From positions 149-64,148 of the forward strand of contig MFUJ01000016.1 of the NCBI GenBank assembly GCA_001785675.1: a stretch of 64,000 bases of DNA, given 5' to 3'. The translations under genes were made by a program, and so were the position numbers. Each line of letters starts with the position of its first letter. Position 1 is the stretch's first letter. This stretch comes from Candidatus Nomurabacteria bacterium RIFCSPHIGHO2_12_FULL_37_29 (lineage in GTDB: Bacteria; Patescibacteriota; Minisyncoccia; Phycocordibacterales; UBA9973). Below are positions 8,697 to 58,460 of the stretch, one piece after another. The notes under the pieces were generated by a model. The model searched no databases, was not told the DNA's origin, and saw nothing but the letters and a program-made list of their open reading frames with translations.

Positions 8697-9548
8697 ATGT
8701 TAAAGATCGGGATTGTTGGTCTGCCAAATGTGGGGAAGTCCACGCTTTTTAATGCGTTGACGAAAAAGAGTGTACCAGCAGAAAATTATCCCTTTTGTAC
8801 TATTGATCCATCGGTAGGTATTGTTCCTGTGCCAGATGAAAGATTAGATAAACTATCAGCCATGTCTAAGTCCAAGAAAAAGATTCCTGCAGTGGTAGAA
8901 TTTGTAGATATTGCGGGATTGGTGAAGGGGGCAAGCGAGGGCGCAGGACTCGGTAATAAATTCCTTTCCCATATTAGAGAAGTGGATGCAATCATTGAAG
9001 TGGTGCGAATTTTTGAAGATAAAGATATGATTCATGTTCACGATAATATTGACCCGCTTTTTGATATTGAAGTTATAAATTTTGAACTTGAACAAGCTGG
9101 AATTACAAAACCGACTTTGTATGTGCTTAACACATCAGAAGCGGCAGAGAGTGTGAAAAAAGATTTTATATCAAAACTTCCAGGCCCACATATTGAAATT
9201 GATCCTATTTTTGGAACTGGTTTGGATAATCTAGTACAAGCAAGCTACGATCTTTTAAATTTAATTACTTTTTTCACTACCGGCGAAGATGAATCGAGGG
9301 CTTGGACTACGTTTCGTGGAGCGACCGCGCCTTTTGCTGGTCGCGCTATCCATAATGATTTTAAAGAAAAATTTATCCGCGCAGAAGTAATTAACTGGAA
9401 AGATTTATTAGACTGTGGCCGTTCAGGCTCTGAAGAGCCCTCAGGCTCGATGAGCTCTTATGTTGTCGCTCGCTCCAAAGGACTAGTGCGAACTGAAGGT
9501 AAAGAGTATATTGTGCAAGATGGAGATGTGATTGAATTTTTAATATGA
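8697..9548 (+). CDS. ychF: ribosome-binding ATPase YchF (Obg-like ATPase), short form
   Basis: IGIVGLPNVGKSTLFNALT...NYPFCTIDP...VEFVDIAGLVKGAS at the N-terminus and a C-terminal TGS-like YIVQDGDVIEF. 283 aa, versus about 363 aa typically. Confidence 0.75.
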   Translation: MLKIGIVGLPNVGKSTLFNALTKKSVPAENYPFCTIDPSVGIVPVPDERLDKLSAMSKSKKKIPAVVEFVDIAGLVKGASEGAGLGNKFLSHIREVDAIIEVVRIFEDKDMIHVHDNIDPLFDIEVINFELEQAGITKPTLYVLNTSEAAESVKKDFISKLPGPHIEIDPIFGTGLDNLVQASYDLLNLITFFTTGEDESRAWTTFRGATAPFAGRAIHNDFKEKFIRAEVINWKDLLDCGRSGSEEPSGSMSSYVVARSKGLVRTEGKEYIVQDGDVIEFLI

Positions 9549-28528: not shown

Positions 28529-30683
28529 TTAATTTATGTTTTGGCCAACTTTCCACCATTAAAAGATTTTTTTTATTTGGTAGCATAGACCAGATTTCTT
28601 CTGTGACAAAAGGCATAAATGGGTGTAGAACCTTGAGTAGGGTAATGAGGTGCATATAGAGAAGTATTTTTGCCGAATCTGCATTTTTATTTTCTAGAAT
28701 TTTTTTCTTCGAACGTTCTATTATAATATCAGCAAAAGTATGCCATGTATAGTGATATAATTTTTCAGCAACAATATAAAACTTATATTCATCCATCTCT
28801 TTTGTAATCTCTCCAATTAGGGAATTTAATTCTTCATCTGTGGCTTTATCTTCTTCATCATACTCTAGTTTCTCTTTAATATTGAAATTTTTTGCATTGT
28901 TCATATTCTCCATAACAAAACGTGCTGCGTTCCAGATTTTGTTTGAAAATTTACTATAGGCTTTTACTTTTTGGATATCAAATTTAGCATCTGCTCCCGG
29001 TCCGATGCCCACGATCATTGACATACGGAGCGCATCAGCACCATATTTTTCTATGATTTCGATAGGATCTATTCCATTATCTAATGATTTGCTAAATTTT
29101 TGTCCTTTAACATCTCGAAGCATTCCATGAAGGTACACTGTTTTAAAAGGAATTTCATCTATTAAATATTCTGACATTAGAATCATGCGAGCAACCCAGA
29201 AGAATAATATTTCGTATCCTGGATTTATGACGCTTGTTGGATGAAAGTTTTTCAAATCTTCTGTTTGGTTTGGCCAGCCAAGGGTTGAGAAAGTCCATAA
29301 CCCCGAAGAGAACCAAGTATCTAGTGTATCTTCATCTTGAATCCAATCGTTGCCCGGATTTTCTCCCACAATTATTTCATCTCCTTTGTAAAAAACAGGA
29401 ATCCTGTGTCCATACCAGATTTGTCTGGAAATACACCAATCGCGGAGATTTTCTATCCAATTATAGTAAACTTTTTCGAAATGACTTGGTATAATTTTAA
29501 TTTTGCCTTCTTGCACTGGATTAAGCATTAATTCTTTAAGAGATTTATTATTTCGAGAAGGAATTTTATGATTTACATTCACAAACCATTGAAGCATAAT
29601 TTGTGGCTCAATAATGCCTCCAGTTCTCTCAGCAGTGGCAACTCTATTTACATAATTTTCATCAATCGATACGAGTAATCCTTTTGTTTTTAGTTTCTCA
29701 ACAATTTTTTCACGTGCATCATTAATTTTCATTCCCGCGAATTCTTCTGCGATGGGAAGCAGCTTCCCATATTTATCAATAATTTGCTCTTTTTCTAGTT
29801 TATATTTAAGAGCGAGCGTGAAATCTTCGTGCGAGTGCCAAGGTGTGATGGTCATCGCTCCCGTACCGAATTCCATATCAATCATCTCATCTTTAATGAT
29901 TGTGGCCTCTATAGGGCCGTTGATCCACTCTAGTTTTATTTTTTGACCCTGTTTATACTCCGCGTATCTTTTATCTTCTGGATGCATCACCACGTATTTA
30001 TCACCAAATTTTGTTTCTGGCCGAGCTGTGGAAATAGAAAAAGGTCCATATTTAAAGGTATAAAATTTACCTTTTTGTTCTTTGTAAACTATTTCATCAT
30101 CAGAAATCACTGTCTGACCTTTCGGGTCCCAGTTTACAACTCTATTCCCTCTGTAAATCAGTCCATCGTCATACATTTTTTTGAATGTAGTTTTGACGGC
30201 AGTATTACGAGCTTCGTCTAAAGTAAAAGCTTCACGAGACCAGTCAAGAGATGCCCCAATTTTTCGGAGCTGACTCACAATAGTTTTTCTACTATTCTCC
30301 ACAAATGTATTTACATGTTCCAAGAATTTTTCTCGTCCGATATCTTTTTTATTTAAACCTTCTTTTTCAAGTATTTTTGTAACTTTGGAATCGGTGGCTA
30401 TGGCTGCATGATCTGTGCCAGGGAGCCAGAGAGTTTTTTTGCCCTGCATTCTATTGTAGCGAATCATAGTGTCTTGCATAGAATCTTCCAATGCATGACC
30501 TAAATGAAGTACGCCAGTAGCATTTGGAGGAGGGAGTACTATTGAAAAGTACGGAGCATCTGATTTTGTTATACCTTTTTCCACACACACATCTGGGTTA
30601 AAAAAACCGCTATCTTCCCACAGCTTATATATTCTTTCTTCTGTTTCTTTTGGATTGTAGGGTTTTAGCAGTTTATCGTTCAT
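28518..30683 (-). CDS. valS: valyl-tRNA synthetase (compact 721-aa form)
   Basis: PPPNATGVLHLGHALEDSMQDTMIRYNRMQGKKTLWLPGTDHAAIAT (HIGH region), KFSKSLDN (KMSKS) and a CP1 editing domain. Confidence 0.85.
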   Translation of the reverse strand: MNDKLLKPYNPKETEERIYKLWEDSGFFNPDVCVEKGITKSDAPYFSIVLPPPNATGVLHLGHALEDSMQDTMIRYNRMQGKKTLWLPGTDHAAIATDSKVTKILEKEGLNKKDIGREKFLEHVNTFVENSRKTIVSQLRKIGASLDWSREAFTLDEARNTAVKTTFKKMYDDGLIYRGNRVVNWDPKGQTVISDDEIVYKEQKGKFYTFKYGPFSISTARPETKFGDKYVVMHPEDKRYAEYKQGQKIKLEWINGPIEATIIKDEMIDMEFGTGAMTITPWHSHEDFTLALKYKLEKEQIIDKYGKLLPIAEEFAGMKINDAREKIVEKLKTKGLLVSIDENYVNRVATAERTGGIIEPQIMLQWFVNVNHKIPSRNNKSLKELMLNPVQEGKIKIIPSHFEKVYYNWIENLRDWCISRQIWYGHRIPVFYKGDEIIVGENPGNDWIQDEDTLDTWFSSGLWTFSTLGWPNQTEDLKNFHPTSVINPGYEILFFWVARMILMSEYLIDEIPFKTVYLHGMLRDVKGQKFSKSLDNGIDPIEIIEKYGADALRMSMIVGIGPGADAKFDIQKVKAYSKFSNKIWNAARFVMENMNNAKNFNIKEKLEYDEEDKATDEELNSLIGEITKEMDEYKFYIVAEKLYHYTWHTFADIIIERSKKKILENKNADSAKILLYMHLITLLKVLHPFMPFVTEEIWSMLPNKKNLLMVESWPKHKLNDK

Positions 30684-55792: not shown

Positions 55793-56125
55793 ATGGGATT
55801 TTTTAGTCTTGACTTATTAAAAGGTATACCCTATACTCTAGAGTATATGGTAAAACAAACATTGCACAAACACGGCGAGCAAAACATAAAGGCTCGTAAA
55901 GTTATCAATATGGCAATCGGGAGCCTCAATACAATTCCTAACATGGTCAATGAAAAACGCTATTGTCCCGAGATTATCCAGCAGCTCGACAGTGTGGTTG
56001 GATTACTAAAAAGTGCGCGGACAGAACTACTTCGCGGGCATCTTGATTCCTGTCTTTCGGAACAACTCAAGAATGACAAAGAGGGAGCGGTCAAAGAATT
56101 ATTAAAAATCTATAACATGCAGTAA
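55793..56125 (+). CDS. csoR: CsoR/RcnR-family metal-sensing repressor (DUF156)
   Basis: [13 protein letters not shown]...[33 protein letters not shown] carries the C-H-C Cu(I) ligands. The real start is probably the ATG at 55847 (92 aa), given the promoter and operator inside the 5' end of the longer ORF. Confidence 0.7.
55809..55851 (+). promoter_or_regulatory. sigma70-type promoter with overlapping CsoR-type operator palindrome
   Basis: TTGACT (55809-55814), 17-bp spacer, TATACT (55832-55837). A 12-bp-arm inverted repeat taccctatactc/ta/gagtatatggta (55826-55851) overlaps the -10 box and the ATG at 55847. Confidence 0.55.
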
Positions 56126-56129
56126 TTTT

Positions 56130-58460
56130 ATGAATACTCCCCAAATATACAAAATAAAAGGAATGCACTGCGCTTCATGCGCAAGCATTATTGAAAGAAC
56201 TCTTAAAAAGATTGAGGGTGTAGAGAATATATCAGTAAATAATGGTACAGAAAATGCCAAAATCTCTTTTGATGAGAATAAAACAAATCCTGATCAATTT
56301 AATAAAAAGCTAGAACCTCTCGGCTACTCACTTGTCGCAAATCACGATATGTATTCTGGTAATATGACCGCAAAAGAAATGAACATGTCGGAAGATGAGC
56401 ACAAGACGCATCTTGGAATTAATCAATCAAAAAAAGAAAAACTTGCAGAAATATCGGACATGAAGTCAAAAGTCATTTCTGCGATTCCGCTTGCCATAAT
56501 TAGCTCTGTAATTTTAGGTTGGGACATTTTAGCCGAATACAAAATAGTTTCTGAAATGAGTCTTACGATTAAGGAATTTTTTCACCATCTTCTACCCCTG
56601 ATGGCGACATACGTTCTATTCGTGGTTGGTAAACCGTATCTTCTTGGTTTTTATCGTTTTCTGCGCTATGGCAAAGCCAATATGGATACTCTTATAGGCA
56701 TAGGTACACTGGTGGCATATCTGTACAGTTTTGCCGTAACTGCTTTTGAAGAACCACTGAAACAGTTCATAAATGTTGACGCAACTTATTATGATGTGAC
56801 GATAATCGTTATTACATTTATCGCGCTCGGAAAGTATTTGGAAGCTAAGTCAAAAATAAAAACCGGAGATGCCATTGAAAAATTACTTAATCTACAGGCG
56901 AAAACTGCCCTTGTAATTAGAAATAATAAAGAAATAGAAATTCCAGTTAATGACGTAATCCATGACGATCTGGTTATTGTTAAACCGGGAGCGAAAATCC
57001 CTGTTGACGGAATAATTACCGAGGGCTCTTCGTTCATTGATGAATCAATGGTTACGGGGGAACCGATGCCGGTTGGTAAAAAAGTTGGTGATAATGTGGT
57101 AGCTGCTACAATAAATACCAGTGGGTCATTCACATTCAAAGCGACCAAAGTCGGGTCGGAAACTTTACTTGCTCATATCATAAAAATGGTAGAAGAGGCG
57201 CAGGGGAGTAAAGCGCCGATTCAAGCATTAGCTGATAGAATTTCAAGTGTCTTTGTGCCAATTGTGCTTGTGATTTCCTTCCTTACTCTTTTAGCATGGC
57301 TTTTTTTCGGCATTAGCACGCTTGGATTTTCGCAAGCACTTTCCTTTGGCCTCGTTTCATTCGTGGGAGTATTAGTAATTGCTTGCCCTTGCGCTTTAGG
57401 GCTGGCAACGCCTACGGCGATTATTGTTGGGGTTGGGAAGGGCGCGCGTGAAGGAATTCTTGTCAAGGATGCAGCTACGCTCGAAAAACTGCATAAGGTG
57501 GATACGGTGATCGTCGACAAAACTGGAACGATTACTATCGGCAAGCCGACACTAGTAGATATTCAAAATTTTTCCGGTTTTTCGGATGATAAATTTATTT
57601 CACTGCTTGCATCGCTTGAAAAAAAGTCCGAGCATCCGATTGCTCACGCAATTGTAAATTACGCGCAAGAAAAAAATATGCCGCTAGAAAATGTTTCAAG
57701 TTTTGAAGGAATACAAGGGAAAGGACTTAAAGGAATAATCAATAACGTGGAATATTTTGTTGGGAACGCAAAACTTGTACAAGAACTCAGAATTCCCTTT
57801 GATAATTTAAAATTAGAACAGTACACGGCACAGGGAAAAACCCCGGTGATTTTTGCGACGCAGGAGAAAGGACTTAGCTCTATTTTGGGATTTGTAATGG
57901 TCGCGGATGAAATAAAAGCAGAATCAAAAAAAGCTGTGAGTGATCTTTATAAACTTGGTATTAAAGTAGTGATGCTAACCGGGGATGATGAGAGAGCAGC
58001 GAAGTATATCGGATCACTCGTTGGCATTGATAATGTGGTTGCTCACGTATTACCACAGGATAAACTGGAAAAGATAAAGGAACTTCAATCACAAGGTAAG
58101 GTTGTAGCCATGGCGGGTGATGGCGTGAATGATGCTCCGGCGTTAGCACAGGCCGATGTCGGTATCGCAATGGCGACAGGCACTGATGTTGCCATTGAAT
58201 CTGCTGGAATTACGCTTTTGCATGGCGACATTTCTAAATTAGTAAAAGCAATAAAATTATCAAAAATGACCATGCGGGGGATCAAGCAGAATCTTTTCTG
58301 GGCTTTCATATATAATATAATTGGCATTCCGCTTGCGACTGGAATTTTCTATCCAATTTTCGGGTGGTTGCTTTCGCCAGTTTTCGCTGGATTTGCGATG
58401 GCGATGTCTAGCGTCTCAGTAGTGTCGAATTCACTGCGGATTAAAAGTAAGAAATTATAA
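56130..58460 (+). CDS. copA: copper-translocating P1B-type ATPase
   Basis: N-terminal HMA domain [13 protein letters not shown], a CPC in TM6 ([11 protein letters not shown]), DKTGTIT phosphorylation site, [10 protein letters not shown] hinge. Confidence 0.9.

Follow-up and report, generated by a model that had tools for sequence, protein, structure and literature searches.

The csoR gene of Candidatus Nomurabacteria bacterium RIFCSPHIGHO2_12_FULL_37_29 lies in a stretch of 64,000 nucleotides (nt) of contig MFUJ01000016.1 (GenBank assembly GCA_001785675.1, positions 149 to 64,148 of the forward strand), which is analysed here in full and called the window; all coordinates below are positions in it. 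Our reading, to which we assign a probability of about 80%, is that csoR, for a small repressor of the CsoR/RcnR family, and copA, for a Cu(I) exporter, form an autoregulated copper-efflux operon, and that the region 55793-55847, which the longest open reading frame (ORF) would assign to the csoR coding sequence, is the control region of this operon together with the true 5' end of csoR. This interpretation is supported by phylogenetic footprinting: promoter and operator elements keep a fixed spacing to the ATG at 55847 in related loci, the protein which begins at this ATG carries the copper-ligand signature of CsoR, and a copA homolog follows csoR in most of the relatives.

In the mechanism which we propose, a sigma-70-type promoter (-35 at 55809-14, -10 at 55832-37) would start transcription at about 55843-47, the mRNA beginning at the AUG at 55847 or 2-4 nt before it; such a messenger, having no Shine-Dalgarno (SD) sequence, would undergo leaderless or near-leaderless translation into a CsoR of 92 residues, and copA, 4 nt after the csoR stop, would probably be translated by coupling. 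Tetramers of apo-CsoR would bind the dyad ATACCC-N9-GRGTAT (55826-46, with flanking TAC/GTA to 55852) and, once bound, would cover the -10 hexamer together with the points at which transcription and translation begin, blocking RNA polymerase; Cu(I), bound at C40, H65 and C69, would lower the affinity for DNA and derepress both genes. The elements on which this scheme is built are the following.

55793-56125, plus strand: long ORF, 110 residues
55847..56125, plus strand: csoR coding sequence, 92 residues plus stop (Pfam PF02583, invariant ATG, public annotation)
55793..55846, plus strand: spurious 18-codon N-terminal extension, that is, non-coding promoter/operator DNA, as judged from stops in relatives and from the conservation pattern
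55809..55814, plus strand: -35 hexamer TTGACT of the csoR-copA promoter (consensus scan; position conserved in relatives)
55832..55837, plus strand: -10 hexamer TATACT, 17 bp from the -35 hexamer and within the operator (consensus scan)
55843..55847, plus strand: predicted transcription start zone, 6th-10th nt after the -10 box, leader 0-4 nt (from the position of the -10 box and the 6-nt spacing found in the window)
55826..55846, no strand: putative CsoR operator in the family register, ATACCCTATA-C-TCTAGAGTAT, centre C55836 (conservation in relatives)
55827..55852, no strand: 26-bp palindrome, axis 55839|55840, gapless, arms 55827-55839 and 55840-55852 (TACCCTATACTCT/AGAGTATATGGTA), 12/13 complementary (92%)

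The start codon of csoR

An earlier note on this DNA had pointed to an in-frame ATG at 55847 within a long annotated csoR ORF. The ATG is there, 54 nt downstream of 55793 and in frame with it, as codon 19 of the long ORF and inside the right arm of the palindrome; the annotation is a different matter, since the 110-residue ORF is mechanically the longest frame and not the public annotation, the record of NCBI contig MFUT01000015.1 having the 92-residue form, which is 100% identical to the NCBI protein P0001 called on that contig. Homologs agree with the shorter form. Among those listed as the 120 best database homologs, 97 have 81-98 residues, and 92 is the commonest length; the other 23 (for example P0002-P0013, P0020, P0032, P0052, P0053, P0109 and P0110) are over-extended, with 99-134 residues. 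Conservation of orthologs through the first 18 residues of the long ORF was also looked for and was not found: the longer calls share with the extension in the window only the string 'ID..IPYTLGY', beyond which both their length and their sequence vary. This string is the translation of the -35 element, the spacer and the operator, 'IPYTLGY' being the translation of ATACCCTATACTCTAGGGTAT, the operator itself; the over-extended N-termini thus look conserved because a conserved operator is translated.

The related set consists of 37 genome loci, mostly from Patescibacteria, of which 34 were used for the reading-frame check, with subsets of 30 distinct sequences for information content and 32 for hexamer counts. 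In 11 of the 34 loci the promoter spacer contains an in-frame stop, 30 nt ahead of the ATG, and in 21 of them such a stop occurs at no more than 60 nt; 18 of the 34 have no alternative in-frame start upstream. The counterpart of the ATG at 55847 is invariant (30/30 distinct sequences). This conserved start codon identifies, as far as comparison of sequences can do so, the ATG at 55847 as the true start of csoR. An internal start at M22 of the 92-residue form (ATG 55910) was considered as well and rejected, given that residues 7-21 are conserved as protein and that solved CsoRs align from residue 5-6.

Very little credit is left for the opposite view, according to which the long ORF is real, a CsoR of 110 residues being translated from the ATG at 55793 out of a transcript initiated at 55701-55728, and the promoter and palindrome downstream are chance or internal coding features. 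The site from which such a transcript would come is the following.

55701..55728, plus strand: second promoter-like site TTGAAA-16-TACAAT with upstream TG (TGgTACAAT), 10/12, outside the conserved unit

The frame is indeed open from 55793, this TG-extended promoter-like site does lie upstream of it, and the 23 extended entries align over 'ID..IPYTLGY'; to this are opposed the lack of conservation upstream of the -35 element and the varying lengths of the extensions, the Pfam domain, which does not begin before residue 35 of the long form, the solved CsoRs, which align from residue 5-6 of the 92-residue form, the lack of a well-placed SD before 55793 (a GAGGA lies about 18 nt upstream), the public annotation, which starts at 55847, and above all the reading frames of the relatives, because of whose stops the 110-residue protein is excluded for practical purposes. 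The start codon is thereby fixed for a widespread csoR family of the Candidate Phyla Radiation (CPR), about one fifth of whose listed database entries (23/120) are over-extended.

Promoter, operator and their conservation

The promoter which the earlier note had placed in the first 55 nt of the long ORF, TTGACT and TATACT separated by 17 bp, is present at 55809-55837; it has a consensus score of 10/12, which in a 1-kb scan is the top score, tied with one other site. Its two hexamers recur at the same positions in the 32 distinct related loci: the -35 position matches TTGACA in at least five of six bases in 26 of them, and the -10 position reads TATACT in 26, the rest having TATAGT, TATACC or TATCAT. 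The -35 element, the -10 element and the ATG keep constant distances from one another in all 37 genome loci, and in about 80 loci when 43 metagenome contigs, an independent sample retrieved by DNA pattern alone, are included. Over the 38 bp upstream of the ATG the sequence is near-invariant, and the flanks beyond the -35 element are unrelated between loci; in terms of information content, positions upstream of -38 carry less than 0.35 bit, the TTGAC 1.1-1.4 bit and most of the positions from -22 to +3 1.6-2.0 bit. Mean pairwise nucleotide identities follow the same profile.

Positions -98..-39: 0.29
Positions -38..-1: 0.79
Positions -22..-1: 0.92
csoR coding sequence, all positions: 0.68
csoR coding sequence, third positions: 0.44

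Conservation of the control region thus exceeds that of the second codon positions (0.85), and upstream of the ATG at 55847 it shows no codon periodicity. The abrupt beginning of conservation at the -35 element (position -38) argues against a transcription start upstream of 55793, which the earlier note had considered. In the metagenome sample, all of the complete cases have a CsoR-like ORF of 90-98 residues beginning right after the operator; three apparent exceptions are sites of full symmetry in which csoR lies on the other strand. Inspection by eye places a tRNA 3' end close upstream of the -35 element in some loci and, at the same place in others, a short terminator-like inverted repeat followed by a T-run.

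Conservation at the nucleotide level does not end with the start codon. Positions +4..+13 of csoR (GTAAAACAAA; codons 2-5, 55850-55859) are conserved at 0.7-1.0, third positions included, versus about 0.44 elsewhere in the gene, which points to a constraint acting on DNA or RNA, for example on an operator flank or on the 5' end of a leaderless mRNA.

As for the palindrome, the length of 26 bp and the overlap with the -10 box claimed in the earlier note both hold, and its arms measure 13 nt with one mismatch in place of the claimed 12 bp. Nor does it end on the ATG: it runs to 55852, through the ATG and also through codon 2, GTA, and only its perfect 16-bp core, TATACTCTAGAGTATA (55832-55847), has the A of this ATG as its last base. 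A palindrome of such quality occurs once in the 64-kb window versus 0.21 expected from Markov-1 simulations, and the operator-like pattern has a single site versus 0.01 expected; no further operator copies were found within the window and, with them, no added regulon member there.

Two registers have to be distinguished. The dyad conserved in the family is centred on C55836: its consensus, ATACCCTATA-C-TATAGGGTAT, covers the -10 box and abuts the ATG, and in its extended form, ACCAT-ATACCCTATA-C-TATAGGGTAT-ATGGT, it spans 31 bp around the C at -11, the -10 hexamer occupying the middle of this dyad and the start codon falling within its right flank. The sequence in the window departs from this consensus at C55838, which is common to about a quarter of the relatives, and at A55842. 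The register of the palindrome, with its axis at 55839|55840, matches 12/13 in the window versus 10/13 in the family consensus (hand count), and it is only in the window that it is the stronger of the two. They coexist because the site holds two TAC triplets (55827 and 55834) and two GTA triplets (55843 and 55850), which make up two TAC-X13-GTA units with a stagger of 7-8 bp. Loci carrying the motif have it exactly once each, at a constant distance of 2 nt from the csoR ATG. The half-sites ATACCC/GGGTAT (ATACCC...GAGTAT in the window) fit published CsoR boxes (PMC5057107, PMC3902906), those used for comparison being TATACCCnnnnnGGGTATA and ATACCCCnnnGGGGTAT (PMC5057107). What emerges is a compact, very well conserved and putatively copper-responsive promoter-operator for largely uncultured organisms.

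The cassette made of csoR, copA and this control region is also met in contexts unrelated to one another, namely in loci L005, L006, L010, L020, L026, L028, L029 and L031 (in L005 and L006 beside a tRNA 3' end), and on contigs binned as Gammaproteobacteria, Burkholderiales and Thermoplasmata; horizontal transfer or mis-binning could account for this distribution. A scan of viral contigs for operator plus ATG returned 0 matches and hence no evidence of phage carriage.

CsoR, CopA and the 5' end of the transcript

The protein encoded from 55847 matches Pfam PF02583 (Trns_repr_metal, CsoR/RcnR) with 54.3 bits, the gathering threshold being 22.8, over residues 35-106 of the long ORF, that is, 17-88 of the 92-residue form; six solved members of the CsoR/RcnR family match at E values from 6e-6 to 6e-4, and the alignment of the 92-residue form with the solved CsoRs is nearly end to end (query 5-88 of 92). 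From these alignments the Cu(I) ligands are predicted to be C40, H65 and C69, with Y39 and E84 in the second shell, corresponding to Y35, C36, H61, C65 and E81 of the aligned M. tuberculosis CsoR; in the HMMER alignment to 2hh7 the relevant pairs are YC/YC, H-L-D-S-C/H-L-E-T-C and KELL/EELI. The C, H and C ligand positions are invariant in 19 aligned homologs.

The second gene of the operon is the expected partner of a copper sensor.

56130..58460, plus strand: copA, Cu(I)-exporting P1B-type ATPase, second operon gene (Pfam HMA, E1-E2_ATPase, Hydrolase)

CopA carries an HMA domain and a CPC motif, and scores 598 bits against TIGR01511 (copper-translocating ATPase), whose cut-off is 397. It begins 4 nt past the csoR stop (junction 56123-56132), and no SD-like sequence precedes it, so tight an arrangement suggesting that copA is probably started by translational coupling or by re-initiation. 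Relatives, among them L004, have a junction as tight as this one. Of the 37 related loci, 31 carry a CopA homolog downstream of csoR, and in about half of the related loci a DUF305 gene, absent in the window, stands between the two (for example L011 3327-3890, 187 residues, Pfam PF03713, E 1e-17). DUF305 proteins are associated with copper resistance.

Several observations weigh against the proposed circuit. Promoter-like sites scoring at least 10/12 are no commoner in the window than expected (12 per strand versus about 13.7), and the call of the csoR promoter therefore rests on conservation and not on the consensus match alone; moreover, a site of equal score, that at 55701-55728, is found 108 bp upstream of it. 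The operator in the window is degenerate in the family register (8/10 in the core), having at position 55842 an A where 97% of the relatives have a G, which turns GGGTAT into GAGTAT. The TAC-X13-GTA spacing is 4 bp wider than the X9 of most characterised CsoR boxes, and, compared with the geometry typical of CsoR, namely TAC-X9-GTA with G/C tracts of at least 4, the site has X13 and tracts of CCC/GGG only. In the protein, the RLXR motif of helix alpha-1 is missing: the RLKR of 4m1p pairs with VINM, a tentative pairing in view of the low identity of this pairwise HMMER alignment. Given the X13 spacing and VINM, it would be by analogy only that CsoR is placed on the operator at 55826-55846. Finally, the -10 box of csoR ends 9 nt before the ATG, versus 6 nt in the other putative leaderless genes of the window, and a strictly leaderless messenger would need an unusually distal start.

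Conserved lysines (NxKAxK) are found 2-5 residues N-terminal of VINM, and the replacement of RLXR by VINM may go with the wider spacing of the operator. Besides A55842, the window has GG at 55823-55824 versus the CC of the outer arm ACCAT of its relatives; with these two departures its operator copy may be bound more weakly or in an alternative register. As to the 5' end, the 9-nt gap and the usual start distance would place it at 55843-55845, with a leader of 2-4 nt, and such a leader is at least as likely as a strict 5'-AUG. A weaker hexamer which overlaps the -10 box, TACTCT (55834-39), is separated from the ATG by 7 nt and could give an exact 5'-AUG; its distance from the -35 hexamer, however, is 19 bp. 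There is no SD core upstream of the ATG at 55847, and the defensible wording is that translation of csoR is predicted to start at or within a few nt of the 5' end of the transcript.

The equal-scoring upstream site opens another way of reading the locus, in which translation does start at 55847, but a substantial share of the transcripts comes from 55701-55728, with a leader of about 110 nt in which the palindrome would form a hairpin and sequester the AUG, a further layer of control being added at the level of RNA. The TGn-extended -10 box of this site is typical of this genome, and the RNA from 55735 to 55900 does fold the palindrome, AUG included, into a hairpin, in the minimum-energy as well as in the centroid structure; this fold, however, is no better than that of shuffled sequence (z = -0.99), a leadered messenger would have no SD available, and neither the site nor the spacer of 430 bp has a counterpart in relatives, while conservation of the proximal promoter extends to about 80 loci, in some of which tRNA genes or terminator-like repeats are seen, by eye, shortly before the -35 element. 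We consider it unlikely that such transcripts contribute substantially. A hairpin in RNA as the primary function of the palindrome was rejected as such, the fold being like that of shuffled sequence and most of the left arm being missing from the proximal transcript.

The spacer just mentioned (55376-55808, about 430 bp) separates a TauD-like gene from the csoR promoter; it is free of genes, which is unusual in a compact genome, and contains a perfect 10-bp inverted repeat with a 47-nt loop (55607-16 / 55664-73) as well as the strong promoter-like site with extended -10 box at 55701-28. A BLASTN search of 55339-55808 against all fetched related loci and the window gave no similarity. In Rfam, the region 55330-56140 yielded at E <=1 a single meaningless match to a lncRNA (E 0.38) and no known RNA element, and the whole window yielded at gathering thresholds tRNAs and one LOOT RNA only, none of them near the csoR locus. 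The LOOT RNA (Rfam RF03000; 45745-45863, plus strand; 80.7 bits, gathering threshold 46.4) is a structured RNA of unknown function.

The departures in protein and operator raise, on the other hand, the question of the regulator itself: the palindrome might be a real operator that serves another regulator, or a divergent CsoR/RcnR-family protein which senses some other signal, for example Ni/Co, persulfide or an aldehyde. With this would agree the modest E values of about 1e-5 to which the matches with solved CsoRs are confined, scores that fall far short of the NCBIfam cut-offs for RicR and RcnR, the VINM in place of RLXR, an operator spacing unlike that of known CsoR boxes (PMC3902906) and the His-rich N-termini of many relatives. 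It is nevertheless quite improbable in our judgement, given that the C-H-C triad and its Tyr/Glu second shell are intact, that residue 3 is Lys and not the His of RcnR, that the operon partner is a P1B ATPase of the copper type with HMA domain and CPC motif, that half of the relatives have a DUF305 gene in addition between csoR and copA, and that known CsoR boxes have these same half-sites, ATACCC/GGGTAT (PMC5057107).

Returning to the proposed start of csoR at or near the 5' end of its messenger, the window holds a wider signature of the same kind. Of the 55 ORFs of at least 100 residues, 11 (20%) have a TATAAT-like hexamer, often with a TGn extension, at a distance of exactly 6 nt upstream of the ATG, versus 0.55% of control (internal) ATGs, and SD-like cores are rare among the genes of the window. 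Instances of this spacing are the genes starting at 8697, 10587, 21175, 37568 and 49503 on the plus strand and those ending at 30683 and 49380 on the minus strand. In the loci of the relatives the 6-nt spacing is found in 11 of 140 genes versus 0.58% of controls, and an SD-like core in 7 of 140. These figures, drawn from one 64-kb window and from short related loci, suggest that leaderless expression is common in this CPR genome. The literature searched had only incidental mentions of leaderless expression in Patescibacteria, CPR, Saccharibacteria or Parcubacteria. What is offered here is sequence-level evidence for leaderless or near-leaderless translation in CPR bacteria, whose ribosomes are reduced, and the genome-wide signature may prove a more interesting by-product than csoR itself.

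Comparison with known systems

The closest counterpart is the csoR-cueA locus of Bradyrhizobium liaoningense CCNWSX0360, in which csoR is autoregulated, the transcription start, mapped by 5'-RACE (rapid amplification of cDNA ends), falls on the A of the ATG, so that the mRNA is leaderless, and the CsoR box and the -10 element overlap (PMC5057107). The locus described here shares with it the position of the box over the -10 hexamer, the linkage to a Cu P-type ATPase and the identical half-sites TATACCC/GGGTATA (PMC5057107). The published boxes are TATACCC-N5-GGGTATA and ATACCCC-N3-GGGGTAT (PMC5057107), and the spacer between the half-sites is 5 bp in B. liaoningense versus 9 bp here (PMC5057107). 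The two loci also differ in their arrangement, csoR and cueA being divergent and served by a shared bidirectional promoter, whereas csoR and copA point the same way, with 4 nt between them (PMC5057107); in the transcription start, which is mapped in B. liaoningense and here predicted, from a -10 box 9 nt from the ATG (PMC5057107); and in the host, an alphaproteobacterium in one case and a CPR bacterium in the other.

A second precedent is the nickel operon nreAXY of Mesorhizobium, whose NreA is a repressor of the CsoR/RcnR family expressed from a leaderless messenger, as determined by 5'-RACE, in a layout conserved across strains (PMC12724321). In both cases an efflux operon opens with the gene for a small CsoR/RcnR repressor, with the promoter immediately upstream of its start codon and a dyad in the core promoter (PMC12724321); NreA, however, responds to nickel, and its 19-bp operator, of other sequence, lies between the -35 and -10 elements, whereas the dyad considered here lies over the -10 box and the start codon (PMC12724321).

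The type-2 operators of Streptomyces lividans CsoR, which stand also for those of B. subtilis, C. glutamicum and M. tuberculosis CsoR, have the consensus ATATACCCCTNAGGGGTATAT and are mostly of the form TAC-X9-GTA (PMC3902906); each site binds two tetramers, the TAC/GTA repeats are indispensable, and sites with multiple repeats behave differently (PMC3902906). The operator of M. tuberculosis CsoR also departs from X9 (PMC3902906). In common with the type-2 sites, the operator of the window is a pseudopalindrome with ATACCC...GGGTAT half-sites flanked by TAC/GTA, and in common with S. lividans CsoR, its presumed ligand is a Cu(I) sensor of the C-H-C type with a conserved Gln after the ligand Cys, here YCPEIIQQ (PMC3902906). 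The G-tracts of the S. lividans type-2 sites, which are mostly TAC-X9-GTA, measure 4-5, whereas those found here measure 3, within TAC-X13-GTA (PMC3902906). Unlike those sites, moreover, the operator has an AT-rich centre, TATACTATA, which doubles as the -10 box, and the RLXR of helix alpha-1 of other CsoRs is, by alignment, VINM. In the M. tuberculosis transcription start site paper the only text match to 'CsoR' is an author's name, Csordas, in a reference.

Taken jointly, these features lead to a broader picture, put forward tentatively and at rather less than even odds: leaderless initiation, with a TGn-extended -10 box 6 nt before the ATG and few SD sequences, may be a major route of expression, hitherto undescribed, in the Nomurabacteria and their patescibacterial relatives; the csoR-copA cassette may spread through CPR lineages together with 38 bp of control region in which conservation exceeds that of the coding sequence; and an operator made of two staggered TAC-X13-GTA units, its AT-rich centre being the -10 box, may together with a CsoR devoid of RLXR constitute a recognition geometry distinct from that of the characterised CsoR-operator complexes. 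The design of the circuit, on the other hand, is already documented, in the csoR of Bradyrhizobium and the nreA of Mesorhizobium, to which this locus adds a further member, in a CPR host and with a wider-spaced variant of the operator.

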